The position numbers were made by a program, and so were the translations under genes. 64,000 bases of DNA from Candidatus Latescibacterota bacterium (GTDB taxonomy: Bacteria; Latescibacterota; UBA2968; UBA8231). The notes under the pieces are model-generated. The model was not told the DNA's origin. It worked only from the letters and a program-made list of their open reading frames with translations, and made no database searches. Below, one piece after another: positions 49,782 through 64,000 of the stretch (position 1 is the stretch's first letter; each line of letters begins with the position of its first letter). The stretch spans positions 832,001 through 896,000 of the forward strand of contig CBDCSU010000006.1 of assembly GCA_965221775.1 (NCBI GenBank), read 5' to 3'.

Positions 49782-50705
49782 ATGCGCACCTTCCTCGTTT
49801 CCCTCATGACCTTGGCGTCCCTCCTGGGGCTCGCCAGCGTCACCCACTCCCACGTCGGCGACCAGGTCTACTTCTTCCACGAGCTGCTCGACGAGGACCT
49901 GGACCGCATCGATCTGACCGACGGCAGCGTCGAGGACTGGCTCGAGGTCGTCGGCGAGCCCTCGCTGACGGCCAGCGATTTCTACTGGCTCTTCGGTGCG
50001 TACGATCTATCGGACTTGGACTTCCGCATCTGGCTCGCCTGGCACCAGGGCAGCGGTACTCTCTGGGTCGCCATGGAGCGCTTCGACGATCTCTACCTCA
50101 ACAACTACGACGGGGCCGGCCTCCACGAGATGGTGGGCTGGGACTCCAGTATCGCCTTCATGGTCGACGGTGATCACACCGGCGGGATCTACGGCCAGCT
50201 GCTCGGGATCAACTGCGAAGAATGCACGGACGAGCAAGTCCTGTGGAACCACCGGCAGGCGCAGCGGTGGATGGCGATCGCCGCGGCGCCCGGCGGCGGC
50301 GACATCCTGGACTACGACGGCGCCAGTGACTGGGTGATCCGGGCGCCGTATGCCGCAGCCGGCGGCGGGGTCATGGGCGAGAGCCCTGCGACGACGGTTA
50401 CCGAGTTCATGTTGACCCCCTTTGACGACCTCATCTACAACGACGAGGAGGCGTCCACGCCCTCCGAACTCTACCCCGGCAAGGTCATCGGGTTTTCGAT
50501 CTCAATGTGGGACAACGATGCTGTGGCTTGGGGAGGGCCCGCGCGTGTATCAATTTCGCTATCTGGCAATTGGCAGGTGATGATCAAGGCGGATCTCTTC
50601 TCCGACGGTTTACTCGTCGGCGCCGGGGAAGACCCCTCCCGCTACGACGACGTCTCCGCCGTGGAACCGTCCTCCTGGGGGCGGATCAAGGCCAGCTTCA
50701 AGTAG
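49782..50705 (+). CDS. Secreted CBM9/DOMON-like protein with C-terminal SWGRIK motif
   Basis: Signal peptide, GGAGG RBS, paralog of 1..831, ends SAVEPSSWGRIKASFK. Confidence 0.65.
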   Translation: MRTFLVSLMTLASLLGLASVTHSHVGDQVYFFHELLDEDLDRIDLTDGSVEDWLEVVGEPSLTASDFYWLFGAYDLSDLDFRIWLAWHQGSGTLWVAMERFDDLYLNNYDGAGLHEMVGWDSSIAFMVDGDHTGGIYGQLLGINCEECTDEQVLWNHRQAQRWMAIAAAPGGGDILDYDGASDWVIRAPYAAAGGGVMGESPATTVTEFMLTPFDDLIYNDEEASTPSELYPGKVIGFSISMWDNDAVAWGGPARVSISLSGNWQVMIKADLFSDGLLVGAGEDPSRYDDVSAVEPSSWGRIKASFK

Positions 50706-50880
50706 CTGGGTCATAGGACCGCCGACACGCGCCCCGGACTCGGCTTCAAGCAAGGAGGAGCACGATGCGAGTGCCGCACTTTCTGCTGCTGGCTCAGTTC
50801 CTGGCAACCTCTCAAGCACGAGGAATCTCACAGCCGCAGGGGAGGTATGGCTCGTGGTGAGAGAGACGAACGAGGGCTGA

Positions 50881-51420
50881 ATGACGTCGATAGCGGGGGT
50901 AGTCACTGGCTTGGCGCTGCTGGTTGGCGGCGCTGTCATGCACGATGAGAACTACGCCAAGGACGATCCTCGCCTTCGCCGCATGAAGATTCATGAGCAG
51001 AAGGAGCACGTTGGTTACCTCCTCGGAGCGGCAGGGGGAGCTCTCTTCTCCCTGTCTCTCCAGGAGATACTGGACAGACGGACCGAGATAACCCTTGGCC
51101 CGACTCTTGTGAGAACAACCCTGGGGAGCGGACTCGTGTGGATCGGACTACTGACCCACGAAGATCCCCATAGAGGAGATCGGGATACGAGGATGGCCTA
51201 TGAGACACAGAAGACGAATGACCTTCAGGAGCACTTCGGCTACCTTCTCGGCCCCCTGGGAGCCGCTGCTGCAGCCCTCTCGGTCAAGGGCTATCAGAAT
51301 CACCGTAGCCAATCCAAGGCCCTCGTGGACACGCCCTCTTTCAGCATCCCGCCAGGCCTCCTACCCTCTATCAAGAGGACTCCTCAGAGGTTCGGAGAAA
51401 CCCCTGTAGCCCTTCGCTAG
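50881..51420 (+). CDS. Hypothetical membrane protein with internal two-fold repeat
   Basis: EHVGYLLGAAG / EHFGYLLGPLG repeat. Atypical codon usage. Confidence 0.4.
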   Translation: MTSIAGVVTGLALLVGGAVMHDENYAKDDPRLRRMKIHEQKEHVGYLLGAAGGALFSLSLQEILDRRTEITLGPTLVRTTLGSGLVWIGLLTHEDPHRGDRDTRMAYETQKTNDLQEHFGYLLGPLGAAAAALSVKGYQNHRSQSKALVDTPSFSIPPGLLPSIKRTPQRFGETPVALR

Positions 51421-51441
51421 TGCTCCGATTAGGTATCATAC

Positions 51442-51530
51442 AAGGTCATCGGCTTCACCATCAGCACGAGAGACAACGACGCCACCGACGGAATGGGGCG
51501 CCAGCACTACTACCTTCAGCTTGGCCGATC
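51442..51530 (+). pseudogene. Remnant of SWGRIK-family paralog
   Basis: AAGGTCATCGGCTTCACCATC...GACAACGACGCCACC (KVIGFTISTRDNDAT) matches 52071..52120. Confidence 0.6.
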
Positions 51531-51561
51531 TTTAGGACCTCCACTTCAGCGAGCAAACACC

Positions 51562-52310
51562 ATGCGCACCTGCCTCGTTTCCCTCCTGACCTTGGCTCCG
51601 CTCCTGGGCCTCGCCGGCGCCGCCCACGCTCACATCGGCGACCAGATCTACCCATCTTCGAGCTACTCGATGAGGATCTGGACCGGATCGACCTGACCGA
51701 CGGCAGCGTCGAGGACTGGCTTGGCGTCCTCGGCGAGCCCTCGCTGACGCCCGCCGACTTCTACTTTCCGGACCATTACGATCCAAGCAGCGTGGACAAC
51801 CGCTTCTGGCTCGGCTGGCACCCGGCGAAGCGGCACCCTCTGGGTCGCCATGGAGCGCTTCGATGACATCTACCACAACCACTTTGCGGGAGAGGTCAAG
51901 GAGTCGGGGCTCTCAACGATGAACCGCTGGGACTCGTCTTTCACCTTCATGGTCGACGGCGATCACTCCGGCGGACGGCACCTGGCCCTTGAAGAGGAAA
52001 CCAAGCTCCAGAACAACCGCCAAGCCCAGCAGACGAGGCCGCTTCCAGAGCCTCGATACTGTATCCGGGGAAGGTCATCGGCTTCACCATCCACACGACC
52101 GACAACGACGCCACCGAGTACCCCGACGGATTGGGGCCGGCCGACCTTCAATTGCTCGGCGACAGGGGGGAGGCCGTCCGCTTCGCCGATCTCTTCGTCG
52201 ACGGCCTGCTCGTCGGCGCCGGAGAAGACCCCTCCAGCTACGACGACGTCTCCGCCGTGGAGCCGTCCTCCTGGGGGCGGATCAAGGCCGCCCTCCGGGG
52301 GCGTCCCTGA
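51562..52310 (+). pseudogene. Frameshifted, internally deleted SWGRIK-family paralog
   Basis: MRTCLVSLLTL signal peptide. Frameshifts near 51650 and 51830. The segment between RQAQ and the ASxLYPGK block is missing. Ends SWGRIKAA. Confidence 0.8.
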
Positions 52311-52402: not shown

Positions 52403-53488
52403 ATGCCCGACCCCACCGCCCCCCGGCCTCCCGCCAGGAGGGGCCGCGCCGCCGGCTTCAACACCCCCAACCGCTTCGAGCCCCTGCACCTGGAGCCCGA
52501 CCCGGCCGAGCCCGGGGAGGAGGGCTTCGAGGAGCGGGTCCCCACCCAGTACCTGGTCGACGCCAGCCGCTCGATCCTGGCCGAGAACGACTCGCCGGAC
52601 ATCGGCTTCCGCTTCAGCCTGAACCCCTACCGCGGCTGCGAGCACGGCTGCGTCTACTGCTATGCCCGGCCCAGCCACGAGTACCTGGGGTTCTCGGCGG
52701 GGCTCGACTTCGAGACGAAGATCCTGGTCAAGGAGCAGGCCCCGGAGCTGCTGGAGGCGGCCCTGCGCAAGAGGTCGTGGCAGCCCCAGGTGGTGGCCCT
52801 GTCGGGCAACACCGACTGCTACCAGCCGGTGGAGCGGCGGCTGCAACTCACGCGGCGGTGCCTGGAGGTGTTCCTCAAGTTCCGCAACCCCGTGAGCCTG
52901 ATCACCAAGAACCACCTGGTGACGCGAGACCTCGACATCCTGGGGGAAATGGCGGCCCTCGACCTGGTGCACGTGACCCTGTCGATCACCAGCCTCGACC
53001 GAAGGCTGACGGCGGCCATGGAGCCGCGCACCTCGCGGCCGGAGCGGCGCCTGCAGGCGCTGGACCAACTCTCCGGGGCGGGGGTGCCGGCGGGGGTCAA
53101 CGTGGCGCCCCTGATCCCGGGGCTCAACGACTCGGAGATCCCCGCCATCCTCGAGGCGGCGTCGGCGAGGGGGGCGCGCTGGGCCAACTACATCCTGGTG
53201 CGCCTGCCCGGGGCCGTGCGGCCCCTGTTCCTGGACTGGCTGCAGCGGAACTACCCCGACCGCGCGGACAAGGTGGTGCACCGGCTCGAGGCGGTGCGGG
53301 GGGGACAGCTCTCCGACGCGCGCTACGGCAGCCGCATGCGGGGCGAGGGGGAACTGGCGCGGCTGGTGGCCCGGTTCTTCGAGATCGCCAAGAGGCGGGC
53401 AGGACTGGGCGCCGGGGGGCACGAGTTGGCCGTGCACCGGTTCCGGCGCCAGGGGGAGGATCAGCTGGAGTTGTTCGGGCAGGGGTGA
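52403..53488 (+). CDS. PA0069/Rv2578c family radical SAM protein (SPL-like, DNA-repair associated)
   Basis: NPYRGCEHGCVYCYARP, LDFETKI, NTDCYQPVE, MEPRT, C-terminal QLELF clamp-binding-like motif. Confidence 0.92.
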   Translation: MPDPTAPRPPARRGRAAGFNTPNRFEPLHLEPDPAEPGEEGFEERVPTQYLVDASRSILAENDSPDIGFRFSLNPYRGCEHGCVYCYARPSHEYLGFSAGLDFETKILVKEQAPELLEAALRKRSWQPQVVALSGNTDCYQPVERRLQLTRRCLEVFLKFRNPVSLITKNHLVTRDLDILGEMAALDLVHVTLSITSLDRRLTAAMEPRTSRPERRLQALDQLSGAGVPAGVNVAPLIPGLNDSEIPAILEAASARGARWANYILVRLPGAVRPLFLDWLQRNYPDRADKVVHRLEAVRGGQLSDARYGSRMRGEGELARLVARFFEIAKRRAGLGAGGHELAVHRFRRQGEDQLELFGQG

Positions 53489-53785: not shown

Positions 53786-55153
53786 GTGGGGTCCTCCGGT
53801 CCCGCCGTCAGGCGCCGGCCCGAGAGGGCGGCAGACAGCCTTGCGCACGCAGGCCGCGCCCGTCCCCGCCCTTGGGCGCGAGGCATCATCGTTCTCAACG
53901 GCAACTTCGTCCCCGCATCGGCGGCCGGGCCCTTCAAGTACGGAGCGGTGGGCTATGCCCTAAGGGCGGCGGAGGCCCTGCGTCGCCCGGGCCTGCTGGC
54001 GGGGTTCCTCCTCTACCGGCGCGACGAGGGATTGGACCGGCCGCGGCTAGACCCGGTGCCGCTGCTCGGGTATCCGGCCCTCCAGCTCGGCTTTCACTTC
54101 GGCATGGACCGCCAGGTCCTGGGCGCCGCCCTGGAGGCCGCCCGCGCGCGCCTCGGCGGCGGACGGCTCTACTACCAGACCAACGTGCTGCTGCCCTTTC
54201 ACCCGCCCGGGCGGCCCCTCGTCGTCACCCACCACGCGCCCTTCGTCGACCACGTGGTCGAGGTCATGGGGCCGCGCCTGGCGGAGGAAGCCTTCGGCGC
54301 CGGGCGCGAGAAGCTGGAGCACCTGAGGGTCAACCAGCGCCTCGGACTGAAGCACCTGGCCCGCAGCCGCGGTGCCGCCGTCGAGATCTCGTCGATCCAG
54401 GCGGAGTACCTGCGCGCCCACGGCGTGGAGGGCCGGTTCATCCACAGGATCCACCCTCCCCTGGAGTCCGACGCGGTGAACGGCCTCTCCGGGGAGGGGG
54501 CGCGCCTGCGCAGCTTCATCGCCCGGGGCGGCCCCCGTCTGGTCCTGTGCACGGCCTGCTCGCGGCTGGACGCCTTCAAGAACGTCGAGCTCTTCGTGAG
54601 GGCCGCCCTCGGGCTGGCCAGGTCGGGCCTCGACCTGCGCGCGCTGGTCATCGGGGGCCCTCCCGATGATGCGCAGCGGCGGCGGCTGCAGGGGCTGGTG
54701 GACGCCGGCGTGGCGCACCGATTCCGCTTTTCCCCGAGGGTTTCGCGCGACGACCTGGCCCACCTGCTCGACGATCTGGCCGGCCGCGGCCTCTTCGTCT
54801 GTCCCTCGCGCTACGAGACTTGCGGCCTCACCCCCCTGGAGGCGGCGGCCCGCGGGGTCTGCACGCTGGTGGCGGACACGCCCGACAGGGTCGAGGCGGC
54901 CACGCTGGTCCCGCCCGGGCACCGGTTCACCCCGACGGCAGAGGGCCTCGCAGACGCCGTGCGCCGGCTCGCGGGCGACGGGCGGCTCCGGGTCGAGGGC
55001 CGAGTCCTCGACGAAGGCGCACGGGCCGGCAGCCTCGACTTCGACGCGCGCTTCATCGCCGCCTGGCAGCGTGCGACGGCGCCGCGGGGGCCCGGGTGCG
55101 CCGCGGCCGGCGACGGGCGGGAACTCTCCCGCGATCCGGCCCATCCGGCCTGA
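53786..55153 (+). CDS. Glycosyltransferase family 4 (divergent)
   Basis: VTHH, SRLDAFKN, PSRYETCGLTPLEAA (ExxxxxxxE). Start uncertain. Confidence 0.8.
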   Translation: MGSSGPAVRRRPERAADSLAHAGRARPRPWARGIIVLNGNFVPASAAGPFKYGAVGYALRAAEALRRPGLLAGFLLYRRDEGLDRPRLDPVPLLGYPALQLGFHFGMDRQVLGAALEAARARLGGGRLYYQTNVLLPFHPPGRPLVVTHHAPFVDHVVEVMGPRLAEEAFGAGREKLEHLRVNQRLGLKHLARSRGAAVEISSIQAEYLRAHGVEGRFIHRIHPPLESDAVNGLSGEGARLRSFIARGGPRLVLCTACSRLDAFKNVELFVRAALGLARSGLDLRALVIGGPPDDAQRRRLQGLVDAGVAHRFRFSPRVSRDDLAHLLDDLAGRGLFVCPSRYETCGLTPLEAAARGVCTLVADTPDRVEAATLVPPGHRFTPTAEGLADAVRRLAGDGRLRVEGRVLDEGARAGSLDFDARFIAAWQRATAPRGPGCAAAGDGRELSRDPAHPA

Positions 55154-55161: not shown

Positions 55162-55797
55162 ATGCCCAAGGGCCGTCCGGTCCCGCTCGATCTCTCCTGC
55201 CACTTCAACAACGGCGGCATCGCCGCGGACGGGCGGCCGGCGGAGGGCGGTCTCGACGGCCTGGGCACCGCCTTCCGGGCGCAGAGCCTGCCATCCCCGG
55301 GTGGGACGATCCTCAGCCAGGGGACCCCCTTCCTCTTTCCGGGCGCAACCCCCGGCTCGGAGGACAACATCGCCTGCGAGGCCCAGGTGATCCCCCTGCC
55401 GCCAGGCCCCTGGGGTGCCCTCCACGTCCTGGGCATGTGCGATTGGCGGGCCTTCGAGGAACCCCTCCGGTTGCAGGCCTCCGACGGCACCTTGGCGGAG
55501 ACCCGCCTGGGACTGAGCGACGCGCCGCGCTACGGAGGGCTCCAGTACGGCGAAAGAGCGGCCCTCTCGTGTCCGCTCATGACTCCCGACACGTCGGTCC
55601 CTCTCTCTTCTCTCATCGGCTCCTCGCCGCCCGAAGCCGGATGCGAGACGGAGGAGACGCGTATCGAGGCCGGGATCTGGCACCAGGTGATCGACCTGCC
55701 CGGGCCCCGGCCCCTCACGGCCCTCGTGCTGCCCGACAACCCGTCCATGCACCTCTTCGCCCTCACCCTGGCCGCGGCGGACCCGGCCTCCCCGTGA
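55162..55797 (+). CDS. Stand-alone carbohydrate-binding-like beta-sandwich protein
   Basis: DL..HFNN.GI..D....LDG.G...LP...PF..P....DNI....Q.I.LP...LP....HLFALTL pattern, as recalled from accessory domains of glycoside hydrolases. Confidence 0.5.
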   Translation: MPKGRPVPLDLSCHFNNGGIAADGRPAEGGLDGLGTAFRAQSLPSPGGTILSQGTPFLFPGATPGSEDNIACEAQVIPLPPGPWGALHVLGMCDWRAFEEPLRLQASDGTLAETRLGLSDAPRYGGLQYGERAALSCPLMTPDTSVPLSSLIGSSPPEAGCETEETRIEAGIWHQVIDLPGPRPLTALVLPDNPSMHLFALTLAAADPASP

Positions 55798-56792
55798 GCA
55801 AGCGGATCCCCGGCATTCCCTTCTGCACCAACCGGCACTACAACTGCGTCTACGTGGTGCTCGACAGTCTGCTGCGCTTCCATGGCCACGAGCCCACCGT
55901 GGCATGCTTTTCCAACTGGGACTTCCTCTACCTCCGGGAGGAGGGACGCTTCGCCATCGACGGCCGCGCAATCCCCCTTCCAACGATGCTCGGCGCCTTC
56001 GGGATCGGCCTCTTCCACCGCGCCGACGCCGACGCCGACGCCGCGTGGAAGGCCGTGAAGTCGCGGCTCGACACCGGTACCCCGGTAGCCGTCAACGTCG
56101 ACGTCTTCGCCCTCGCCCGGGCCGGCCTCTATCCCCGCCTGCGTCACGCCGACCACCAGTACATCGCCGCCGGGTACGACAAGCCGGCGGGCACCGTCCA
56201 CCTGATCGATCCGTCGCCCTGGCAGCCCTCCGCGCGGGACATTCCCCTCGGCCTGTTCCTCGCCTGTTGGGACATGAGCGCCTTCTCCGGGGTGCGCGGC
56301 CGCTACAACTGGACCTGGCTGCGGGCGCCGGCGCACCCCCCTTCCCTGGGCCGCGGCCCCCTTCAGGCCCTCCTGCGCCGCAACCTGCGGAGCATGTCGG
56401 CCCCCGGCGGCCAGGCGGGCCTGGTGACGGGCCTGGAGGGGATCCGGCAGCTCGCCGCCGATGCCGGGGCCTGGGCGGGGCGGGAGGACGCCGACCTGCA
56501 GAGCCATCTGCGGCACTGCGCCCGGCTGCTGCTGGAGATCGCCGTGCTCCGCGAGGGGCACGGCCGCTTCCTGGGGCACGTGGGCCGGCTCTTCGACCAG
56601 CCCCGTCTGGCAGCTCTCGGCGCCGAGTTCGGGACGATCTCCCAGGGCTGGTTCGTGGTGAAGAGCCTGTGCCTCAAGGGGGCCCTCAAGGAGCCGCGGA
56701 GTCTCCTGCCCCGCATCCAGTCCCGGCTCGAGGACATCGAGGCCCGCGAAGGCAAGGCCCTGGCGGGACTGGCGGAGGCCGTGGAATGGTAG
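55794..56792 (+). CDS. BtrH N-terminal-like papain-fold (C39/NlpC-P60-like) protein
   Basis: HYNC (Cys), PVAVNVDVF, HADH..AAGYD (His), LIDP (Asp), then a helical C-terminal domain. GTGA overlap with the upstream gene. Confidence 0.7.
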   Translation: MSKRIPGIPFCTNRHYNCVYVVLDSLLRFHGHEPTVACFSNWDFLYLREEGRFAIDGRAIPLPTMLGAFGIGLFHRADADADAAWKAVKSRLDTGTPVAVNVDVFALARAGLYPRLRHADHQYIAAGYDKPAGTVHLIDPSPWQPSARDIPLGLFLACWDMSAFSGVRGRYNWTWLRAPAHPPSLGRGPLQALLRRNLRSMSAPGGQAGLVTGLEGIRQLAADAGAWAGREDADLQSHLRHCARLLLEIAVLREGHGRFLGHVGRLFDQPRLAALGAEFGTISQGWFVVKSLCLKGALKEPRSLLPRIQSRLEDIEAREGKALAGLAEAVEW

Positions 56793-56837: not shown

Positions 56838-56967
56838 GTGTCACCTCCACGCCGCACCGGTGGCACCCGTCACTCACACCCGGCCGGGCGGCCGGCCCCG
56901 GGGGAGGCCGCAAGTCGTTGCCGCCCAGCACGCGGCGGGGCCGCGGGGGTGGTGGCACGGCGTTTGT
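56838..56967 (+). promoter_or_regulatory. sigma54-type promoter module, copy 2
   Basis: Identical TGGCACGGCGTTTGTAT at 56953. GCAAGTCGTTG 43 nt upstream. GTGTCAC 115 nt upstream. Confidence 0.65.
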
Positions 56968-57021
56968 ATGGGAGAAGGCCCAGGGCCACGGCCCACCCCC
57001 TCTCGCCGCGGAGACGCGCTG

Positions 57022-58212
57022 ATGAACATCGCCCTGATCGGTCAGGAGATGCCGCCCCTTTCCGGGGGCCTGGACCGCCACGTTCAGGACTGCGCCGCCG
57101 GACTGTCGCGGCGCGGCTGCGGGGTCCGCGTCCTCTCCATCGTCGGAGAGGGGCGGGGGCTGGCCGGCGACGAGATCCTGCTCCGACCCGGCGGCTCCCC
57201 CATCCAGGTGCACCGGACCTCGGTGCCGGGAGCGGACGACCCCGAGCCGAGGCTCACCGCCGGCGCCTGCCGCGGGCTCGCCCCGCACTGGTGCTCGCTG
57301 CTGGCCGACGCCGACGCGGTCTGCAGCTTCGGAGCCTCTACGGCCCTGGCCGGCGCCGAGATCCGCCGGCGGCTCGGACTCCCCTTCATCGCCGTCCTCC
57401 CCGATCTGCCCTCGCCGTCCGACGCCCGCCTCCGGGAGGTCCTGGGCTGCGGCGCCGATCTCTTCGTCGGCCTCTCGCGCTCCCAGTGCCGCCGCGCCGC
57501 AGAGCGCTTCGGCCTGCCCATGACCCCGGTCCCCCACGGCGTCGACACCGAGCTCTACCGGCCCGTGGCGGGGCCGGCCGCCGAGGCCGCCCTCGACCGC
57601 TACACCGTGCTGGGCGGCATTCCGGGCCCGCTTGTCACAAGCCCCGTGCGCATCGACCCGAGGCAGGGCCTCGAGCCGCTCATCGAGGCCTTCGAGCTGG
57701 TCGTCGCCCTGCGCCCCGACGCCACCCTGCTGATCGCGGGCCACGCCGGCTTCCGCCACCACCTTGTGGGCAACGCCTACGCCGACTACCTGTCCGCCCT
57801 GGTGCAGATGAAGGAGCTGGGCGCCAGGGTGCGCTTCGGCGGGGGCGTGTTCAAGGCCCGCCACATGCCCGCTCTCTACTCGCGCTCGCACCTGTGCGTC
57901 GTGGCCGGCGGGGGCGAGGACTTCGGCGCCGCGCCGGCCGAGTCCCTGGCCTGCGGGACACCGGTGGTGGCCCCCCGCGGCGAGGGCATGGCCGAGGTCC
58001 TGGGCCACGGCACCGGGGGCCTCCTGGTCGACGGCCGGGATCCGGTGAAGGTGGCGCGGGCCATCCTCTCCCTCCTCGACGACGACGCCCTGCGGAACCG
58101 ACTCGGCCGCGGCGGCCGCGAGCACGTGTGCCGCGCCTTCCCGCTGCGGGCGCAGGCCGACCGCTACCTCGAGCTGTTCTCCTCCATCACCGCCGCCCGC
58201 GCCGCCGCCTGA
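57022..58212 (+). CDS. Glycosyltransferase family 4
   Basis: MNIALIG..PP..GG, VPHGVDTELYRP, EDFGAAPAESLACGTPVV. Confidence 0.88.
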   Translation: MNIALIGQEMPPLSGGLDRHVQDCAAGLSRRGCGVRVLSIVGEGRGLAGDEILLRPGGSPIQVHRTSVPGADDPEPRLTAGACRGLAPHWCSLLADADAVCSFGASTALAGAEIRRRLGLPFIAVLPDLPSPSDARLREVLGCGADLFVGLSRSQCRRAAERFGLPMTPVPHGVDTELYRPVAGPAAEAALDRYTVLGGIPGPLVTSPVRIDPRQGLEPLIEAFELVVALRPDATLLIAGHAGFRHHLVGNAYADYLSALVQMKELGARVRFGGGVFKARHMPALYSRSHLCVVAGGGEDFGAAPAESLACGTPVVAPRGEGMAEVLGHGTGGLLVDGRDPVKVARAILSLLDDDALRNRLGRGGREHVCRAFPLRAQADRYLELFSSITAARAAA

Positions 58213-58226: not shown

Positions 58227-59654
58227 ATGCCCCAAGTGCAGCCGGAGTCCCTGGAATCCATCTGCCTCCCCGACGACGGCACGGCCCTGCTCACGCCGCC
58301 GCCGGGGAGCCTGCTCGAATCGGCCGCGGGGGAATCCCCCTCGATCCGGCAGCGGCTCGAGGACGCCCACCGCGAGCTCGCCGGCGGCGATGCCCGGGAG
58401 GCGGCGGGTTCCTTCCAGGCGGTGCAGGCCCGGTGGCCGCATCCCTTGCCTGCCATGGCCGAAGGCGTCGCCCTCGCCCTGGCGTCGGACTGGCGCGGCG
58501 CCCTGACCCAGCTCTCCGGGAGCGCCGGCCAGCTCGAGGAGCGGGGCCTGCCCGACGCGGCCCTCGGCTGCCGGCTGAACCTGGGGTACGTCCACTACGT
58601 CCTGGGCGACCCCGCCGGCGCCGAGTCCACCCTCGACCAGGCGGTGCAGGCCGCGAGCCTCGCCGGCAAGACCCGGCTGCTGGCCACCGGACTCCACGAG
58701 AAGGCCGCCCTCCGGCTGCGCCACGGCCGTTACGGGGACGCCCGCGAGGAGTGCGAGAGAGCGATGGCGGAATGCCCCGGGGAGGGGGCGGCGCTGGCCC
58801 AGGTCATGTGCACGCAGGCGATTGCCTCCCAGGCCCTCGGAGAACTCCCCCGGGCCGAGGAGGAGTTCAGGGCCTCCCTGTCGCTGGCCTCGGGGGTCTC
58901 GCCCTTCGCGGAGCTGCGGGCCTCCGTCAACCTGGCCGTGCTCTGCCAGCTCACGGCGCGCGGCACGGAAGCCCTGGAGCTGCTCGCCGCGGCCACGGCC
59001 GTCGCCGAGCGCCAGCGGGACGCACGGTTCCTCGCCAAGATGCGGTTCCTGCGGGCCCTGATGGACTTCGGGGAGACCGGGGAGGAGGCCCTGCCGGCCG
59101 CTCTCGCCGAGGTCGAGCAGATGCGCGGCCTCCACTACCGCAAGGGAGAGCTGGACGCCATCCCCATGCTGGTCCCGTGTCTGCTGGAGTGCGGCAAGAA
59201 CCTCGAAGCGGAGACCCTGGCCGCCGCGGCGATGACCACCGCGCAGGAGTGCGGGTACCTGGCCGGGCTCCTCGAGGCGATGTCGTGCGCCGCCCTGGTC
59301 CATCTCGCCGGCGCCGACGCCGAGCGCGCGAAGGAGGCGGCCTGCGGCGTCCTGGAGAAGAGCGAGGCGGCGCAGCTGCCGGTCATCGGCATCAAGGCCC
59401 GCCGGATCCTGTCGGACGTGTCGCTGCAGGAGGGCGAGCCGGAGAGAGCCCTGGAGCACCTTCGGCGGGCGGAGGGAGCCGCCGCGGAGATCGGGGCCCA
59501 GGTCCTGCAGTGCCACCTCATGGAGGCGGCAGCCGCCCTCCTGGAGATCTGCGGCAGGATCGAGGAGGCCGAGGCGGAGAGAGCGGCTGCCCAGGCGCGG
59601 GGCCTCTCCATCGGACTGGGGAGCGCTGCCGCAGTCGGGAGCAGCATCGAATGA
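58227..59654 (+). CDS. Tetratricopeptide repeat (MalT/Rap-like TPR) protein
   Basis: NLGYVHYVLGDPAGAESTL, QALGELPRAEEEF, NLAVL helical repeats. No catalytic motif recognised. Confidence 0.7.
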   Translation: MPQVQPESLESICLPDDGTALLTPPPGSLLESAAGESPSIRQRLEDAHRELAGGDAREAAGSFQAVQARWPHPLPAMAEGVALALASDWRGALTQLSGSAGQLEERGLPDAALGCRLNLGYVHYVLGDPAGAESTLDQAVQAASLAGKTRLLATGLHEKAALRLRHGRYGDAREECERAMAECPGEGAALAQVMCTQAIASQALGELPRAEEEFRASLSLASGVSPFAELRASVNLAVLCQLTARGTEALELLAAATAVAERQRDARFLAKMRFLRALMDFGETGEEALPAALAEVEQMRGLHYRKGELDAIPMLVPCLLECGKNLEAETLAAAAMTTAQECGYLAGLLEAMSCAALVHLAGADAERAKEAACGVLEKSEAAQLPVIGIKARRILSDVSLQEGEPERALEHLRRAEGAAAEIGAQVLQCHLMEAAAALLEICGRIEEAEAERAAAQARGLSIGLGSAAAVGSSIE

Positions 59655-59703
59655 ACACGGGGGCATCTACGTGGGCGCTGAACTCACCGAAAGGAGATCC
59701 ATC

Positions 59704-59904
59704 ATGAACAGACTCATCAAGCCGCAGAAGCAGTCCTACCAGGGCGAAGACGCCCAGGTGCTCGCCTACTCCGACATCTGCGAGATGGCAGCCGTCCTCT
59801 GCACGGGCGTGACGATCGGCTTGCTGGGCTTCGGCGTTGCGCCGGCCGTGGTCGTGGCGGGCGTGTCGTGCGCCATCCTGGTCCTGATCTGCGGACTCAT
59901 CTGA
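59704..59904 (+). CDS. Putative RiPP precursor P1
   Basis: AAGGAG RBS. MNRLIKPQKQSYQGEDAQVLAY-SDICEMAAVLCTGVTIGLLGFGVAPAVVVAGVSCAILVLICGLI. Confidence 0.85.
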   Translation: MNRLIKPQKQSYQGEDAQVLAYSDICEMAAVLCTGVTIGLLGFGVAPAVVVAGVSCAILVLICGLI

Positions 59905-59968
59905 GTCCTGTACCACAAGGGGGCATCTACGCGGGCGCTACATTCACATTCACCGAAGGAGATCCATC

Positions 59969-60196
59969 ATGAACAGACTCATCAAACCGCAGAAGCAGTC
60001 CTACGAGGGCGAAGACGCCCAGGTCCTGGCCTACTCCCGTCTCAGCGAGATGGCATGGGCCGCCAGCGTCTGCGCGGGCGCCATAGGCGCTGCGGGCTTG
60101 TTGGGCCTCGCCGTGCCGCCTCTCCTGGCGGCGGTGGGCGTGTCGTGTTTCATCCACTACGTCGTCTACTCGGCGGGCAGCAGGGGTTACCTCTGA
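59969..60196 (+). CDS. Putative RiPP precursor P2
   Basis: AAGGAG RBS. MNRLIKPQKQSYEGEDAQVLAY-SRLSEMAWAASVCAGAIGAAGLLGLAVPPLLAAVGVSCFIHYVVYSAGSRGYL. Confidence 0.85.
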   Translation: MNRLIKPQKQSYEGEDAQVLAYSRLSEMAWAASVCAGAIGAAGLLGLAVPPLLAAVGVSCFIHYVVYSAGSRGYL

Positions 60197-60331
60197 TCCT
60201 TCACCCCTGCATTGGCCCCACCCAATCGCGGCGTCGATAGGGCGCCGCAGTACTCACTGAGCCATCAAACCCCTTAGCGCCCCGTAGATGCCCCCATGGC
60301 TGGCGCCACATTTCCCGGAAGGAGATCCACC

Positions 60332-60547
60332 ATGAACAAGCTCGTCAAGCCGCAGAAGCAGTCCTACACCGGCGAGGACTCCCAGGTCCTTGCCTATTCC
60401 GATACCTGCGAGATGACATGGGCCACCGCCATCTGCACGGCCCGGCCCTGGTTTGGCCTCGGCCGGAGTCCTTTCATCGCCGCGACGGGAGTGACGTGCC
60501 TCCTTTTCTCCACAGTCTGTTCGGCGGTGCGCAACGCTTACATCTGA
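60332..60547 (+). CDS. Putative RiPP precursor P3
   Basis: AAGGAG RBS. MNKLVKPQKQSYTGEDSQVLAY-SDTCEMTWATAICTARPWFGLGRSPFIAATGVTCLLFSTVCSAVRNAYI. Confidence 0.85.
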   Translation: MNKLVKPQKQSYTGEDSQVLAYSDTCEMTWATAICTARPWFGLGRSPFIAATGVTCLLFSTVCSAVRNAYI

Positions 60548-60624
60548 TCCTGTCACCCCATCAAACCCCTTCAGCGCCCAGGGGCATCTACGAGGGCGCT
60601 ACACTCACCGGAAGGAGATCCGTC

Positions 60625-60846
60625 ATGGACAAACTCATCAAACCCCAGAAGCAGTGCTACACCGGCGAGGACGCCCAGGTCCTGGCCTATGCCCGTGACT
60701 GCGAGATTGCCTGGGGCGTCAGGACCTGCGTTGGCTTCACAACCATTGGATACGTGGTGACCGGGTCGCCTTGGGGTGCCGTGGCCGGTGCGCTCTTGGC
60801 CCTCGCTTACATCGTCTCCATGGCGTCGTACAACGGTCACATCTGA
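60625..60846 (+). CDS. Putative RiPP precursor P4
   Basis: AAGGAG RBS. MDKLIKPQKQCYTGEDAQVLAY-ARDCEIAWGVRTCVGFTTIGYVVTGSPWGAVAGALLALAYIVSMASYNGHI. Confidence 0.85.
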   Translation: MDKLIKPQKQCYTGEDAQVLAYARDCEIAWGVRTCVGFTTIGYVVTGSPWGAVAGALLALAYIVSMASYNGHI

Positions 60847-60945
60847 CCTTCCCCCCGGGGATTGCACCGCGTCTTGCTTGAGCGTCGACAAGACGTGTAG
60901 TACTCACTGACCGACCAAACCCTCAGCGCCCCGTAGATGCCCCCC

Positions 60946-62658
60946 ATGATCACAACACTCCTGTCGTCCCTGCCCCGGATTTCGGGAGCGTTCTCCTACG
61001 CGGTCCGGGTCGAAGCCCGCACCATGCGCCACGAGGCCCGGTCGAAGCCGGGGGACTTCTGGCCGGCCGCCGTCATCCACGCGGCGGCCGGAGGGTCCTT
61101 CCTGCTGGTTCTCTGGATCTCCCTCCACACCCTCAAGGGGATCCTCGGCGACGGGGACCCCGAGCTGTCCCTGGCCCTGGCCTCCGCGTTTCTCGCCTCC
61201 TACGCCTTCCTGTGGTTCTGCATCGCCATCGGCTTCGGCGGCGAGATCGTACCCATCTCCCGCCTGGAGAAGCTCGCCGTGCTTCGATGGACCCCGGGGC
61301 AGGCCTACGCCGCGGGCCAGGTGATGGCCGCGTTCCAACCCCTGCACCTGTTCTTCTCCCTGGCCTTCCTGACCACCGGGCTCACGCTCTTCCCGCCGGC
61401 CGGCGCCGCGTCCGTCCTGTTCACGTGCCTGGCCACGGGCGTGGCCGCGTTCGGCATGGTCGCCTGGATCCAGGGCACGCGCTGCGCCATCGAGCTGGTG
61501 TCGTGGAAGGGCGCGCTGTGGACACTCGCCCGAGTCCTGGGGGGCGGGGCGTTCCTGGCTCTCACCCTCCTCCTCGCCTGGTCCGTGGTGGGCGGCGACT
61601 GGATCGAGCGGCTTCGCGGGCTTCCGGGGTCCTGGTTCGAGATGGCGCCCACCAGCCAGTTGGCCCGCGCCTGTCAGCTGGCCGGGGAAGGAGGCCTCGC
61701 GGACCTGCCGGCGCCCCTGGCCCTGCTCGGCGCCTTCGCGGCGGCCGGCTTTCTCTTCGGCTGGCGCCTGACCCGCCGGCGGGTCTTCCTCGCGGGCGGG
61801 TCCCGCCTGGCCCCGGCCGGCCCGTGCGACCGGATCCCGGGCCTGGCCCGGTGGCTCGGGCGGGTCCTGCCGCCGCCCTATCCGAACCTGGTGGCCCGCG
61901 AGGTGCTGTCCACCCTCCGCTGGAGACAGATCTGGATACAGGCCGGGCTCGCCGCGGTATTTGCATGCTGCACGGCCATCCTTCCCGCCCTCGCCCTCTT
62001 TGCCGGCAAGGGGCGCGGCGACTTTCCCTACACCTGGCAGAACGTAATAGGGATCGCCTTGCTCGCCTTCTTCCAGAGCGGGACCGCCGCCAACCTGTTT
62101 TCGAGAGAGGGCCGGGGCGCCTGCGAGTACCTGCTCCTGCCCCTCGACGAGCGGCAGATCCTGGCGAGCAAGAACATCGCCTTCGCGGTGATCCAGTACG
62201 GGCTTACGGCCTTCTGCGCCCCGGCCCTCCTCTTCGTGTTCTGGTTCCACGATCTCCTCGGCGCCGGGTTCCAGGTCCTCGGGGCCGTGGTCCTGGCCCC
62301 CGTGGCGAGCGTCATCGCCGGCAACTATCTCTCGATCCTCAACCCCGCCAGGCAGCCCGCATCGAAGAAGGACCCGAGGGGCCATGTCCCGCGGAACAGC
62401 GGCCTCCTGCAGGCACTGGTGACGACTCTCCTCATCGCCGCGGCGGCCCTGTACTTCTCGATCGATTCCGAGTACCTGCGCCACGCGGCGGCGGCCTTCG
62501 GGATTCCCTCGATCGACTCCGGGTACCTGCGCTACGCGGCGGCCGCCTTCGGGGGCCTGGCCGCCGTGGCGCTGCCGGCGGGGTACGTCGTCGCCCTGCG
62601 CCACCAGACCCGGCTGCTCCGGCAACGCCGCCTCGCCGTGGCGGAAGTGTTCTCGTAA
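60946..62658 (+). CDS. ABC-2-type permease (export/immunity)
   Basis: Multi-TM protein with NLFSREG...YLLLPL...ILASKN pattern, adjacent to an ABC ATPase. Confidence 0.75.
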   Translation: MITTLLSSLPRISGAFSYAVRVEARTMRHEARSKPGDFWPAAVIHAAAGGSFLLVLWISLHTLKGILGDGDPELSLALASAFLASYAFLWFCIAIGFGGEIVPISRLEKLAVLRWTPGQAYAAGQVMAAFQPLHLFFSLAFLTTGLTLFPPAGAASVLFTCLATGVAAFGMVAWIQGTRCAIELVSWKGALWTLARVLGGGAFLALTLLLAWSVVGGDWIERLRGLPGSWFEMAPTSQLARACQLAGEGGLADLPAPLALLGAFAAAGFLFGWRLTRRRVFLAGGSRLAPAGPCDRIPGLARWLGRVLPPPYPNLVAREVLSTLRWRQIWIQAGLAAVFACCTAILPALALFAGKGRGDFPYTWQNVIGIALLAFFQSGTAANLFSREGRGACEYLLLPLDERQILASKNIAFAVIQYGLTAFCAPALLFVFWFHDLLGAGFQVLGAVVLAPVASVIAGNYLSILNPARQPASKKDPRGHVPRNSGLLQALVTTLLIAAAALYFSIDSEYLRHAAAAFGIPSIDSGYLRYAAAAFGGLAAVALPAGYVVALRHQTRLLRQRRLAVAEVFS

Positions 62659-62677: not shown

Positions 62678-63445
62678 ATGGAACCGACCGTGGAGCTGCA
62701 AGACCTGACCAAGCGCTACCGGTCCACCGTGGCCGTCCGTTCCCTCTCCCTGGGGGTGGAGCCGGGGGCGATCCTCGGTCTGGTGGGGCCGAACGGCGCC
62801 GGCAAGACGACGCTGCTCAACATGATGGCCGGGCTCCTGGAGCCGAGCGAGGGCACGGTGCGCCTCTTCGGACGCACCTACGCCGAGGCCGGCAACGACA
62901 TCCGCGCCCTGACCGGCGTCATGCGCGACGACCCGGGGCTCTACGAGAGCCTCACCGGGTCCGAGCACCTGAGCTTCACCGGCTCGGCGTACGGCCTCGA
63001 TCCCGCGGAGGTGGCGGAGCGGTCGCGCGAGGTGCTGGAGTTCATGGATCTCGAAGGCGCGGCCGGCGAGACCGCCGCCACCTACTCGGCGGGCATGAGG
63101 AAGAAGCTGGCCCTCGCCTGCATCCTCCTGCACCAGCCCCGCCTGGTCCTGCTCGACGAGCCCTTCGCCACCCTCGACCCGGAAGCCGCCCTCCAGGTGG
63201 AGGAGCTGCTCCGCAGGCTGTCGGCCGGCGGCGCCACCGTGGTCCTCAGCTCCCACGTCCTCGACCGCGTCGACCGGCTCTGCTCCGAGCTGGCCTTCAT
63301 CAACAAGGGAGAGCTGATCCTGCGGGGCCCGCCCGAGGAGCTGCGCGCCCGCGGCGCCGAGGGCAAGGAGGCCGGGAGTCTCGAGGAGCTGTACATGGAT
63401 CTGGTCGCCCCGGAGGGGGACCGGCGGAGGCTCTCGTGGTTGTGA
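62678..63445 (+). CDS. ABC transporter ATP-binding protein
   Basis: GPNGAGKT, YSAGMRKK, LLDEP, SSH. Confidence 0.95.
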   Translation: MEPTVELQDLTKRYRSTVAVRSLSLGVEPGAILGLVGPNGAGKTTLLNMMAGLLEPSEGTVRLFGRTYAEAGNDIRALTGVMRDDPGLYESLTGSEHLSFTGSAYGLDPAEVAERSREVLEFMDLEGAAGETAATYSAGMRKKLALACILLHQPRLVLLDEPFATLDPEAALQVEELLRRLSAGGATVVLSSHVLDRVDRLCSELAFINKGELILRGPPEELRARGAEGKEAGSLEELYMDLVAPEGDRRRLSWL

Positions 63446-64000
63446 GCCGGCCCGGCTGGCTCTCCCTCCGGCGCAGGAAACCGGCGGGGGGGTCCCTCCT
63501 CCTCTTTCTCTGGGGCTTCCTCAGGCCCTACCGGCTGCGCGCCGCCGAGGCCCTCGCCGCCATGGTCCTGGCGGCGGCCCTCACCGTGCCCCTGCCGCTG
63601 GTGACGATCTACCTCGTGGACGAGGTCTTCGCCGCCGGCTCGCGGCCCACGCTCCACGCCGTCTGCGCCGGGATCCTCGCCGTCTCGGTCCTCGGCACGC
63701 TCCTGAGCCTGCTGCAGGGCTACCTGCTCACCGTCTTCGCCCGGCGCGTGTTCTTCGACATGGAGATCACCCTCACCCGGCGCCTGCTGGCGCAGTCCGT
63801 CGGCTACTTCCGCAAGGCCGGCTCCGGCTACCTCGCCACCCGGGCCAGCGACGACGTGCGGCAGCTGGGGGCTCTCATGGCCGGGACCTGGATCCAGGCG
63901 ATGAACTCGGCCTTCGTCCTCGTCGCCGGCGCCGTGGTGATGATCGCCCTGAGCCCCGGCCTGGCCGCGATCCTGCTGGCCTTCGTCCCCGTCCTCGCCG
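63442..64000 (+). CDS. ABC exporter transmembrane domain (3' truncated), no N-terminal C39 domain
   Basis: Open frame from GTG 63442: FLRPYR...LPLVTIYLVDEVF...YFRKAGSGYLATRASDDV, typical of ABC_membrane exporters. Confidence 0.8.
   Translation, partial: MSRPGWLSLRRRKPAGGSLLLFLWGFLRPYRLRAAEALAAMVLAAALTVPLPLVTIYLVDEVFAAGSRPTLHAVCAGILAVSVLGTLLSLLQGYLLTVFARRVFFDMEITLTRRLLAQSVGYFRKAGSGYLATRASDDVRQLGALMAGTWIQAMNSAFVLVAGAVVMIALSPGLAAILLAFVPVLA

Follow-up and report, generated by a model that had tools for sequence, protein, structure and literature searches.

The window, i.e. the whole stretch of 64,000 nucleotides analysed here, carries near its 3′ end four tandem open reading frames (P1-P4), all on the forward strand, which share a conserved N-terminus of 22-28 residues and differ in their hydrophobic C-termini (Table 1). 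The stretch AAGGAGATCC is invariant 5′ of the ATG in each of the four, and the P1 gene has a GC3 of 0.90 (bin 59700-59939, the last one computed), which is coding-typical for the genome; both are signs that the ORFs are translated. Contigs from RNA libraries span P2 (59970-60241) and the 5′ part of P3 (60271-60432). They are a weak hint at transcription, as DNA carry-over could explain them, and parts of the stretch without such contigs are not evidence of silence. Copies of an intergenic motif, GGGGCATCTACG(N)GGGCGC, also occur at P1-P4, where they form conserved inverted repeats.

Table 1. Positions of the peptide genes, their neighbours and the intergenic motif copies in the window
Feature	Position	Strand	Remarks
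GT4a, family 4 (GT-B) glycosyltransferase	53786..55153	+	Pfam Glycos_transf_1 2.7e-13, GT4-conflict 6e-10
geneA, AziU2 homologue (AziU3/U2 aziridine synthase subunit)	55162..55797	+	211 aa
BtrH-like, BtrH_N/DUF4872 papain-fold protein	55794..56792	+	332 aa; Pfam BtrH_N 1.2e-12, DUF4872 7.4e-09
GT4b, second family 4 glycosyltransferase	56860..58212	+	Pfam Glycos_transf_1 2.3e-26, Glyco_transf_4 6e-09
TPR protein	58227..59654	+	475 aa; directly 5′ of the peptides; Pfam TPR_2 1.6e-09, TPR_12
Motif GGGGCATCTACG(N)GGGCGC, forward	59660..59678	+	Intergenic, 5′ of P1
P1 precursor	59704..59904	+	66 aa; Cys 26, 33, 56, 63 (spacings 6, 22, 6)
Motif, forward copy	59920..59938	+	5′ of P2
P2 precursor	59969..60196	+	75 aa; Cys 35, 60 only
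Motif core, reverse copy	60283..60294	-	P2-P3 gap
P3 precursor	60332..60547	+	71 aa; Cys 26, 35, 56, 63 (spacings 8, 20, 6)
Motif, forward copy	60581..60599	+	5′ of P4
P4 precursor	60625..60846	+	73 aa; Cys 26, 35 and an extra leader Cys (C11); C3 and C4 missing
Motif core, reverse copy	60932..60943	-	3′ of P4; overlaps first possible start of the permease gene
Polytopic membrane protein	60937..62658	+	573 aa; many hydrophobic segments; same position in G167, G160, G083
ABC ATPase, DrrA type	62678..63445	+	Pfam ABC_tran 2.7e-28
Fused ABC exporter, 5′ part	63436..64000	+	582 aa in all; extends past the window end

Genes around the peptide array

The cluster runs from GT4a through the AziU2-like gene, the BtrH-like gene, GT4b and the TPR gene to the peptides, the permease with its ABC ATPase and the fused ABC exporter, and then on to Yip1, a fusion of an S8 subtilase with a DUF1611/TIGR04066-like domain, HlyD, two MacB, an ABC ATPase and an acyl carrier protein (ACP). 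It is conserved across four species; because all four full clusters come from one genus, their synteny does not count as independent evidence.

Upstream of the peptides, the frame of GT4a is backed by the GC3 plot (its real start is possibly 3′ of 53786), and the gene is conserved in two related genomes (G167 and G160). GT4b has its best PDB relatives among sucrose-phosphate-synthase-like, PimB-like and MshA-like GT4 enzymes, and appears truncated in G160, where only residues 17-209 are matched. By sequence and predicted fold geneA belongs to the AziU2/AziU3 family: it has no Pfam match, its profile finds PDB entries 8gs1/7wuw (Azi28/AziU2) by hmmsearch at E 1.6e-26, and its model (pLDDT 76.3) is matched to AziU2 by Foldseek (E 7e-12, TM 0.69), aziridine-synthase activity being only putative. 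The stop of geneA is overlapped by the start of the BtrH-like gene. The BtrH-like protein keeps Cys18, His121 and Asp139 without variation across 17 homologues and also matches Peptidase_C39_2 weakly (0.0017, below the cut-off). A TPR protein lies immediately 5′ of the peptide in two further genomes as well (G040 and G083), and in G041 a TPR match is found ~2.6 kb 3′ of its peptide. A radical SAM gene at ~52439-53488 was considered as a maturase and discarded, being a member of the PA0069 family (477 bits against a cut-off of 360) that other genes separate from the cluster in G167.

Downstream, the polytopic membrane protein has no Pfam or NCBIfam match; it is likely the permease partner of the next ATPase and a candidate for immunity or export. 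The matches of this ATPase to the NCBIfam models for drrA (2e-59) and for a lantibiotic-protection ABC ATPase (1.1e-43) stay under the cut-offs. The full 582-aa ORF of the fused exporter (L005:437-2185) contains only ABC_membrane and ABC_tran according to Pfam, with no C39 peptidase domain. Within the subtilase fusion, QhpE is the closest match of the S8 domain (5.5e-36, 124 bits, below the cut-off of 165), and the DUF1611 part matches TIGR04066, ‘peptide maturation system protein’ (1.3e-30; 106.7 bits against a curated cut-off of 200), which suggests a homologue and no equivalog. The ACP carries a PP-binding domain and has no match to TIGR04069 at E 0.001. The S8-DUF1611 fusion itself is found in 88 of the 168 genomes of the phylum, with up to 7 copies per genome.

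Leaders, cores and cysteines

The initial annotation described the array as near-constant leaders joined to hypervariable cores and proposed a comparison of dN/dS between the two. Both the alignment and the substitution rates bear this description out: over 78 gene pairs from four genomes, non-synonymous divergence differs about fourfold (pN 0.110 in the leader, 0.438 in the core) at similar synonymous divergence (pS 0.308 and 0.369, respectively), and core dN/dS ranges from 0.84 to 2.37 among the 15 pairs listed of the 78. Purifying selection acts on the hydrophilic leader, and the core changes at a neutral or higher rate. The leader follows the motif M-x2-3-L-x-K-P...V-x-x-Y, in which M, L and K-P are invariant and V..Y is conserved.

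Structure prediction (AlphaFold2, mean pLDDT 72.6) gives the P1 core as a helix-turn-helix hairpin with helices at 24-43 and 46-65, in line with the helix-loop-helix arrangement that had been proposed from the cysteine spacing, and cores of this kind consist of two hydrophobic helices of ~20 residues each with a Pro-containing turn between them. A profile of the peptides matched no solved structure in the PDB even at E 10. The cysteines of P1 are symmetric about the turn (26+63 = 33+56 = 89), and (C1+C4)-(C2+C3) equals 0, +2, -2 or +1 in 24/24 four-Cys sequences. Several details of the initial annotation hold as written, namely the spacings C-X6-C, 22, C-X6-C in P1 and C-X8-C...C-X6-C in P3, the absence of both outer cysteines from P2, which keeps the inner two, and the misfit of P4, with C1 and C2 but neither C3 nor C4, to a nested C1-C4/C2-C3 pairing. 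P4 may be either a decaying copy or a copy with a changed role. The cores were also said to be far more hydrophobic than glycocins, and so they are, with GRAVY values of 0.6 to 2.05. The GVTIG motif in the loop is not conserved, since eight P1-type homologues have Thr in three cases (Thr39) and Ala in the other five, and none of the Ser, Thr and Cys residues in the loop is conserved.

Homologues had been called for as a test of cysteine co-variation. Among 38 database homologues both C1 and C4 are present in 24 and absent in 13, C1 alone occurs in one and C4 alone in none; the outer cysteines are therefore jointly kept or jointly lost in 37/38, the sole exception being P4 of the window. Elsewhere, C2 and C3 are lost together with C1 and C4 kept (homologue P0104), or C3 is the sole cysteine kept (P0010). 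On the tree, P0017 (Cys/Cys) and P0019 (Ser/Ser) are sisters with a branch support of 98/80, and there are two independent pairs on well-supported branches, changing in the same direction, a number that cannot reach significance. Because such independent events are few, the co-variation of C1 and C4 fits a nested C1-C4/C2-C3 pairing but is suggestive only. No thiol-redox gene was found in the scanned part of the window's own cluster; related clusters carry MauE together with a rhodanese, or a ResA/TlpA-like thioredoxin.

Relatives of the leader and of the cluster

Peptides of this type are rare, with 38 clusters in 5.8 G proteins and 9 representatives in 1.84 G proteins, and the P1-P4 type is present in only 4/168 genomes of the phylum, all of one genus. 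A search for related loci found no relative among metagenome contigs, and among genome contigs only three MAGs, already known from the comparison. The wider leader family extends to 16/168 Gemmatimonadota genomes, where the same leader type precedes mutually unrelated cores. In the genus g13 these are short soluble C..C..CC peptides, hydrophilic, Cys-rich and 43-48 aa in length, and in G040, G041, G083 and G148 they are Gly/Ala-rich and hydrophobic with one Cys at each end. Weak leader-like ORFs at E 4-8 (G130 L074 8588-8758 and G145 L073 12467-13021) were left uncounted.

The recurring neighbours of the leader family are the subtilase-DUF1611 fusion, an ACP and ABC exporters, often joined by AziU2-like and BtrH-like genes. 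Specifically, eleven genomes have a contig that permits the neighbourhood of the fusion to be tested: it lies within ~7 kb of the peptides in seven of them (G000, G160, G167, G141, G145, G146 and G083) and not near the leader peptides in the other four (G133, G040, G130 and G138), G133 having no such fusion anywhere at E 1e-20. AziU2-like and BtrH-like genes adjoin the peptides in six genomes (G000, G160, G167, G133, G040 and G041), and the ACP accompanies peptides and fusion even where these two genes are missing. Glycosyltransferases occur in only three cluster types of the leader family. Enzymes resembling FGE-sulfatase are present in kin clusters.

Interpretation and comparison with known systems

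The explanation that we favour, and consider somewhat better than even, is that P1-P4 are paralogous precursors of exported, leader-processed, disulfide-stapled helical-hairpin peptides of a bacteriocin-like kind, made by machinery for maturation and export that is specific to Gemmatimonadota. For P1-P4, we infer each of these features: processing, export, disulfides and activity. The leader would steer the peptide to cytoplasmic enzymes, the QhpE-like subtilase domain would cut it off somewhere between residues 18 and 28, and the fused ABC exporter, together with the HlyD/MacB set, would take the core out of the cell interior. Once in the oxidising periplasm, the core would form a hydrophobic helix-turn-helix hairpin with nested disulfides, a constant C2-C3 bond and a C1-C4 bond in the peptides that have both cysteines, while the permease/ATPase pair and Yip1 would protect the producer. 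Further tailoring is possible: the BtrH-like enzyme may transfer an acyl group in an ACP-dependent step, the AziU2-like protein may contribute a reaction of the AziU2 kind, and the two GT4 enzymes may add sugars. Tandem duplication together with diversifying cores would yield a cocktail of variants.

The cores, P1 above all (GRAVY 2.05), are hydrophobic enough to be transmembrane hairpins, and it could be argued that P1-P4 are unprocessed small membrane proteins (accessory subunits of transporters, or immunity proteins) with the N-terminus as a cytoplasmic domain. The two ~20-residue hydrophobic helices with their Pro-containing turn and the adjoining transporter genes agree with this, and the best Foldseek match of the P1 model in the PDB is an ATP-synthase membrane hairpin, but at a non-significant E of 8.9. 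However, the same N-terminal motif heads the hydrophilic g13 peptides, which are unable to span a membrane, a core dN/dS of ~1 or higher is unusual for structural subunits, and a leader-peptidase-like subtilase and several exporters accompany the peptides; this reading is very improbable. Whether the cysteines form disulfides at all is a separate matter, as thioethers or links to an ACP-delivered group could be made by the AziU2-like, BtrH-like and DUF1611/TIGR04066-like proteins with the ACP. Precedents come from several sides: the CLI_3235 system, which includes TIGR04066 and an ACP-like protein, bears a sactipeptide-like annotation in PMC10731318 and has Cys-rich cores, AziU3/U2 catalyses an intramolecular displacement according to the relevant part of PMC12559475, the substrate of QhpE bears Cys thioethers as described in sections of PMC7876137, and the FGE-sulfatase-like enzymes of the kin clusters belong to a family acting on Cys. 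Yet the only radical SAM enzyme nearby is the PA0069-family protein, outside the cluster in G167, and no radical SAM/SPASM enzyme or lanthipeptide enzyme family appeared in any scan. That C1 is lost along with C4, and C2 along with C3, is easiest to understand if they are Cys-Cys partners, and thiol-disulfide genes (MauE, ResA-like) accompany kin clusters, which leaves bonds other than disulfides improbable.

A functional analogue of the glycocins, in which the GT4 enzymes glycosylate Ser, Thr or Cys of the hairpin to give disulfide-stapled helix-loop-helix bacteriocins that converge on the glycocins of Firmicutes, is a possible but distinctly less probable account than the favoured one. Two GT4 genes lie inside the cluster in G000, G167 and G160, a GT4 gene accompanies a short Cys-rich peptide in the G146 kin cluster (L115:11645-12901), and a GT28_C-type glycosyltransferase stands at the end of the G083 cluster. 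The Pfam family ‘GT4 in conflict systems’ is matched by GT4a and by the G146 enzyme (1.1e-05), GT4b weakly matches TIGR04157 (‘TIGR04157 family glycosyltransferase’, model glyco_rSAM_CFB; 1.3e-08, far below the cut-off), and a hairpin with nested cysteines is the glycocin architecture as outlined in part of PMC12457901. Against this, most same-leader clusters (G040, G041, G141, G145 and G133) have no glycosyltransferase, and therefore glycosylation does not define the system; GT4b is apparently truncated in G160, the loop offers no conserved acceptor, the closest solved GT4 relatives use lipids and small molecules, and an ACP-borne or lipid acceptor for the sugar is equally possible. On another view the peptides are simple and class-II-like, undergoing only leader removal, export and perhaps oxidation, and a separate product, such as a glycolipid or an acylated small molecule, comes from the GT4, AziU2-like, BtrH-like and ACP genes, which merely share the island. 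Most g13 genomes indeed have a module of ABC, S8-DUF1611, ACP, AziU2-like, BtrH-like, MFP and RND genes without a leader peptide in the stretches fetched, BtrH-type enzymes and AziU3/U2 belong to small-molecule pathways, and G165 has a decayed block of GT4a, AziU2-like, BtrH-like and GT4b genes without peptides or a TPR gene. But leader peptides adjoin the AziU2-like and BtrH-like genes in three lineages (g1, g21 and G133), the ACP stays with peptides and fusion where those genes are absent, and the fusion of an S8 protease to the DUF1611/TIGR04066-like domain ties that chemistry to a peptide substrate, making a separate product unlikely.

A bolder proposal, which we put forward as doubtful, goes beyond stapled and exported hairpins to an undescribed class of Gemmatimonadota RiPPs, defined by the L-x-K-P leader, the cytoplasmic QhpE-like subtilase-DUF1611/TIGR04066-like fusion and a dedicated ACP. 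Either the DUF1611-like domain or the BtrH-like Cys-His-Asp enzyme would place an ACP-borne group on the peptide, the AziU2-like protein would then work on it, and this genus would add GT4 glycosylation; the products would be acylated, glycosylated, disulfide-stapled hydrophobic hairpins, a convergent diderm glycocin made by quite different enzymes. No published description of this system was found in the literature on DUF4872, BtrH and RiPPs, DUF1611 or Gemmatimonadota RiPP precursors. Gemmatimonadota are common in soil and marine hosts and almost uncultured, and their peptide natural products are, to our knowledge, essentially unknown. The locus is a readable entry point to them, as one leader motif ties together very different cores. 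If the ACP-dependent step does act on peptides, this would be a new way to decorate ribosomal peptides, and if the GT4 enzymes do so, they would open up a new family of peptide glycosyltransferases. The way in which cysteines are lost in pairs also predicts the disulfide map in a simple form that can be tested.

Among known peptides, glycocins share with the present system the leader, ABC export, glycosyltransferase genes in the cluster, a predicted helix-turn-helix and four cysteines symmetric about the turn, with co-variation consistent with two nested disulfides. The glycosyltransferases SunS and GccA are of family GT2 with a GT-A fold, whereas those of the cluster are GT4 (GT-B) enzymes by Pfam and PDB relatives. 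Residues 1-28, which cover the leader, contain neither GG nor GK, and Gly14 is their one conserved glycine; sequence similarity to glycocins is lacking, and no peptidase-containing ABC transporter is present. Thus the likeness to glycocins drawn in the initial annotation is one of shape only, and the peptides are not glycocins. The C39 (PF03412) ABC transporter near a glycosyltransferase is a mining criterion for glycocins in the part of PMC12457901 that deals with it. The hallmarks of double-glycine class II bacteriocins (GG leader and C39-ABC exporter) are likewise both absent from the cluster, and neither LanB/C/M/KC/L nor rSAM-SPASM enzymes were found by Pfam or NCBIfam among its ORFs.

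Single components point to other systems. BtrH-type enzymes are known from small-molecule pathways; the acyl transfer by BtrH/BtrI in butirosin shares with the cluster the BtrH_N/DUF4872 architecture, the invariant Cys-His-Asp and an ACP. AziU3/U2 of azinomycin, known from a small-molecule pathway as presented in part of PMC12559475, has a clear AziU2 homologue in geneA, but the solved enzyme has two different subunits and the cluster one AziU-like gene, and here the genes of both kinds adjoin ribosomal leader peptides. QhpE, to which the S8 domain is closest, is a cytoplasmic protease that trims a small Cys-rich subunit of its leader ahead of ABC export, as set out in a section of PMC7876137; in quinohemoprotein amine dehydrogenase, QhpC is matured with QhpE and QhpF. 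Kin clusters have thiol-redox proteins of the MauE family and of a MauD/ResA-like kind, comparable to MauE and MauD in methylamine dehydrogenase maturation. In contrast to quinohemoprotein amine and methylamine dehydrogenases, there are no dehydrogenase subunits here and no QhpD or QhpG, and hypervariable multi-copy arrays take the place of one conserved enzyme subunit.

Of the systems described so far, the CLI_3235 system for peptide maturation, itself uncharacterised, comes closest, and we know of no role assigned to its TIGR04066/ACP pair since it was defined. This family of Firmicutes (TIGR04065-TIGR04069) includes the SacP23 cluster of Paenibacillus polymyxa, as covered in part of PMC10731318. 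Both systems combine a leader-bearing precursor with a Cys-rich core, a subtilisin-like protease, a TIGR04066-type protein, an acyl-carrier-type protein and an ABC exporter. They differ in that P1-P4 do not match TIGR04065 (nor any NCBIfam family at E 0.01 for any of the four), the ACP does not match TIGR04069, the TIGR04066 score stays under the cut-off, and no radical SAM/SPASM maturase (TIGR04068) occurs in the window cluster or the scanned kin clusters. In the present cluster the protease and the TIGR04066-like domain are fused, AziU2-like, BtrH-like, GT4 and TPR genes are added, and the host is a diderm.

The P1-P4 array and its intergenic motif

Each of the four small precursor genes P1-P4 is preceded by an invariant AAGGAGATCC ribosome-binding stretch, and GC3 is 0.90 across the P1 gene (plotted to 59939), like that of real genes in this genome of ~73% GC. 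The initial annotation described a constant leader followed by diverging cores, and this is borne out by the alignment of the four peptides, in which residues 1-22 are near-identical, conservation wanes by about residue 28 and the remainder is divergent. A Nei-Gojobori comparison over the 78 pairs formed by 13 genes of four genomes gives a pN of 0.110 and a pS of 0.308 for the leader versus 0.438 and 0.369 for the core; strong codon bias raises dN/dS in both parts, and it is therefore the contrast between them, not the absolute dN/dS, that is the result. For one DNA run, the assembly splits into alternative short contigs exactly within the P3 and P4 cores, which fits strain-level variation at these places. 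In metatranscriptome libraries the array is matched by two short contigs, one identical over 59970-60241 (P2) and one with two differences over 60271-60432 (start of P3); these could stem from DNA carry-over.

P1-P4 are the sole copies of their family in the genome, and the family is found in four of the 168 genomes of the phylum set (G-numbers), all of the window's genus (g1). Among 5.8 billion proteins, a word-seeded profile search picked out 38 clusters, all of 66-75 aa, and a full HMMER scan nine matches among 1.84 billion representatives; homologue records that carry an organism name belong to Gemmatimonadaceae, with one titled Latescibacterota. One 68-aa homologue (P0038, in G160 and G166) keeps the leader, has a Pro-rich tail and two shifted Cys, and looks from its sequence like a frame-shifted or degenerate paralogue.

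Upstream of the peptide genes lies a 19-nt motif, GGGGCATCTACG(N)GGGCGC, and downstream of them its reverse complement. Both copies are present at all four peptide genes of G160, one copy is missing at some genes of the other three genomes, and some copies in the window are partly deleted. The motif sequence is conserved across the four species (the window and loci L016, L018 and L007), exact copies in the own genome occur at this locus only, and a reverse-forward pair in G167 gives a long stem (-82.3 kcal/mol, z -7.5). The motif may serve RNA processing or RNA stability, or be bound by a protein.

Proposed cysteine pairing and the predicted hairpin

The Cys positions and spacings of P1-P4 are as initially annotated, with an additional Cys at leader position 11 of P4. 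Among 38 homologues, the inner core cysteines C2 and C3 are present in 36 and 37, respectively. The outer C1 and C4 occur jointly in 24 and are jointly lacking in 13; C1 stands alone once (in P4) and C4 never. The more distant member P0104 keeps C1 and C4, C2 and C3 being missing. In a tree from which the Cys columns were omitted, one supported sister pair shows a paired change (P0017 with Cys/Cys versus P0019 with Ser/Ser), and C4 follows C1 in both of only two independent pairs on supported branches, too few for significance; neither C2 nor C3 does so.

In the AlphaFold2 model of P1 from the family alignment (mean pLDDT 72.6), helices at residues 24-43 and 46-65 are joined by a Pro-containing turn, and the Cys positions are symmetric (26+63 = 33+56 = 89). 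Across the 24 four-Cys sequences the C1+C4 and C2+C3 sums differ by 0, ±2 or +1, and sums that are equal or nearly so are needed if C1-C4 and C2-C3 links are to nest within an antiparallel hairpin. The joint C1/C4 states, the symmetric positions and the hairpin model fit the nested disulfides proposed earlier, P4 and P0010 are misfits, and the independent pairs number two; a hairpin with nested Cys pairs is consistent with these data but unproven. That P4 falls outside such a model had already been recognized; on the tree it sits on a long branch, as sister to a four-Cys sequence.

The surrounding gene cluster

The cluster order was derived from a GC3 frame plot with Pfam and NCBIfam scans, and all genes lie on one strand.

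Genes of the cluster in order, and positions of other features (window coordinates unless a locus, L, is named)
Order	Feature	Position	Strand	Detail
1	GT4a			family 4 glycosyltransferase
2	geneA			211 aa
3	BtrH-like			BtrH_N/DUF4872 protein; start overlaps geneA stop
4	GT4b			family 4 glycosyltransferase
5	TPR protein
6	P1	59704-59904	+	66 aa ORF
6	P2	59969-60196	+	75 aa ORF
6	P3	60332-60547	+	71 aa ORF
6	P4	60625-60846	+	73 aa ORF
7	Polytopic membrane protein			573 aa
8	DrrA-type ABC ATPase
9	Fused ABC exporter			without C39 domain
10	Small ORF
11	Yip1 membrane protein
12	S8-DUF1611			subtilase (S8) fused to DUF1611; without N-terminal hydrophobic segment
13	HlyD
14	MacB-type permeases			two genes
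15	ABC ATPase
16	Acyl carrier protein (ACP)
	Motif	59660-59678, 59920-59938, 60581-60599	forward
	Motif	60283-60294, 60932-60943	reverse
	307-aa protein	49782-50705
	Lower-GC stretch	50700-52300
	IS1595-family transposase	L005 8901-9914		~71900-72913, past window end
	P0038	L018 12186-12341; L007 583-738
	GT4b of G160	L018 14443-15021
	307-aa paralogues	L016 4179-6239; L018 18391-19999
	Decayed block of G165	L053		G165:C1:3464300-3484299
	Propeller array of G133	L067		G133:C1:1804500-1824499

This order is conserved in G167 and G160, and in G166 as far as its short contigs show; since all genomes sharing it are of one genus, synteny is weak evidence for a functional link. In the own genome, the last two genes are cut off from the second MacB gene by the IS1595 element and several kb of lower-GC DNA, which are absent from G167 and G160.

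The GT4b gene of G160 matches residues 17-209 only of the window's protein and, judged by this match, may be truncated or frame-shifted. G165, of the same genus, holds a decayed block with geneA and the BtrH-like gene intact, GT4a matched in three pieces and GT4b up to residue 338; in its locus the block is followed by neither a TPR gene nor peptides nor exporters, and the genome has no peptide-family match. At the cluster edge, the 307-aa protein (N-terminal hydrophobic segment, no Pfam family) has two or three tandem paralogues in G167, G160 and G165, and a duplicated radical SAM gene fragment adjoins GT4a in G167, which suggests rearrangement there. The lower-GC stretch of the window (GC 0.59-0.63 versus ~0.73) has a weak codon-position signal and ORFs without family matches. 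A PA0069-family radical SAM gene upstream, considered as a maturase, was ruled unrelated to the cluster.

The BtrH-like protein has Cys18, His121 and Asp139 kept in 17 of 17 aligned homologues; BtrH moves an acyl group from ACP onto an amine. No Pfam family covers the geneA product; in the PDB its profile finds AziU2/Azi28 (E 1.6e-26), and its model (pLDDT 76.3) matches the AziU3/U2 structures (E 7e-12, TM 0.69), AziU3/U2 being described in a review as an aziridine synthase in function, via sulfate displacement (PMC12559475). geneA and the BtrH-like gene are found as a pair in 30 of 168 genomes and 9 of 49 genera. The usual order around this pair in genus g13 is ABC exporter, rhodanese, S8-DUF1611, ACP, geneA, BtrH-like, membrane-fusion protein and RND pump, and these loci are without GT4 and TPR genes, no leader peptide having been found within the stretches examined.

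The wider leader family and known systems

ORFs with a related N-terminus are neighbours of the geneA/BtrH-like pair in G040 (after a TPR gene), G041 and G133, and the leader alignment, with invariant M, L and K-P and nearly invariant V and Y, has matches in 16 of 168 genomes. The g13 peptides begin with MIALHKP[EQ]RATYGQAVEAQ and continue in short, hydrophilic, hypervariable cores with four Cys as C..C..CC, and the cores of G083, G148, G040 and G041 are hydrophobic and Gly/Ala-rich, one Cys opening the core and another lying at, or close to, the C-terminus; the Cys number is even in all leader-family cores inspected in full. One leader type thus heads unrelated cores. This is the logic of a leader-guided maturation system and argues against the reading of the window's peptides as plain membrane proteins.

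The companions of these peptides recur as well. In 7 of the 11 genomes whose contigs allow the test, S8-DUF1611 lies no more than ~7 kb from the peptides, alongside ACP and a fused ABC exporter, and in G083 the genes come in the same order as in the window (TPR, peptide, permease, ATPase, exporter, Yip1, S8-DUF1611, ACP) without GT4, geneA or BtrH-like genes and with an added ResA/TlpA-like thioredoxin and GT28_C-type glycosyltransferase. Peptide clusters of g13 hold rhodanese and MauE, DUF5128 propellers and FGE-sulfatase-like proteins, and that of G146 also a GT4. The G133 locus contains a long tandem array of DUF5128 six-bladed propellers interleaved with FGE-sulfatase-like genes, flanked by three leader peptides, rhodanese, ACP, geneA and a BtrH-like gene. 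The S8-DUF1611 fusion itself is spread over 88 of 168 genomes, representing 26 of 49 genera, with up to seven copies per genome (seven in G089), so that the system extends far beyond the detected leader set.

The array is real and unusual and its architecture was well described, but its assignment to the glycocins, suggested by the Cys spacing of P1, does not hold. The glycosyltransferases are of the GT4 type (best solved relatives PimB-, MshA- and sucrose-phosphate-synthase-like), the exporter has no C39 domain, P1-P4 have no double-Gly leader, and the peptides have no sequence similarity to glycocins, their profile matching no PDB structure even at E 10; a hairpin with nested Cys pairs would be consistent with the glycocins. 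Glycosyltransferases occur in three cluster types (g1, G146 and G083) and are absent from the others, so that glycosylation is an optional decoration at most, and in the window's cluster it is rather doubtful.

In the pathway that we envisage, the leader of P1-P4 would be processed and the peptides exported and disulfide-linked. The closest match of the S8 domain is QhpE (5.5e-36) and that of the DUF1611 part the TIGR04066 'peptide maturation system protein' (1.3e-30), both with scores below the curated cut-offs. QhpE is described as a cytoplasmic protease that removes a leader of 28 residues from a small Cys-rich, cross-linked subunit, which an ABC transporter then exports (PMC7876137), and TIGR04066 as part of the CLI_3235 bacteriocin system, together with an ACP-related protein, a subtilase, an ABC transporter and a radical SAM maturase (PMC10731318), the last having no counterpart in the window's cluster. 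The most fitting description of P1-P4 is a core type, new and confined to one genus, of an undescribed Gemmatimonadota leader-peptide system; among described systems, CLI_3235, itself biochemically uncharacterised, comes nearest to it.
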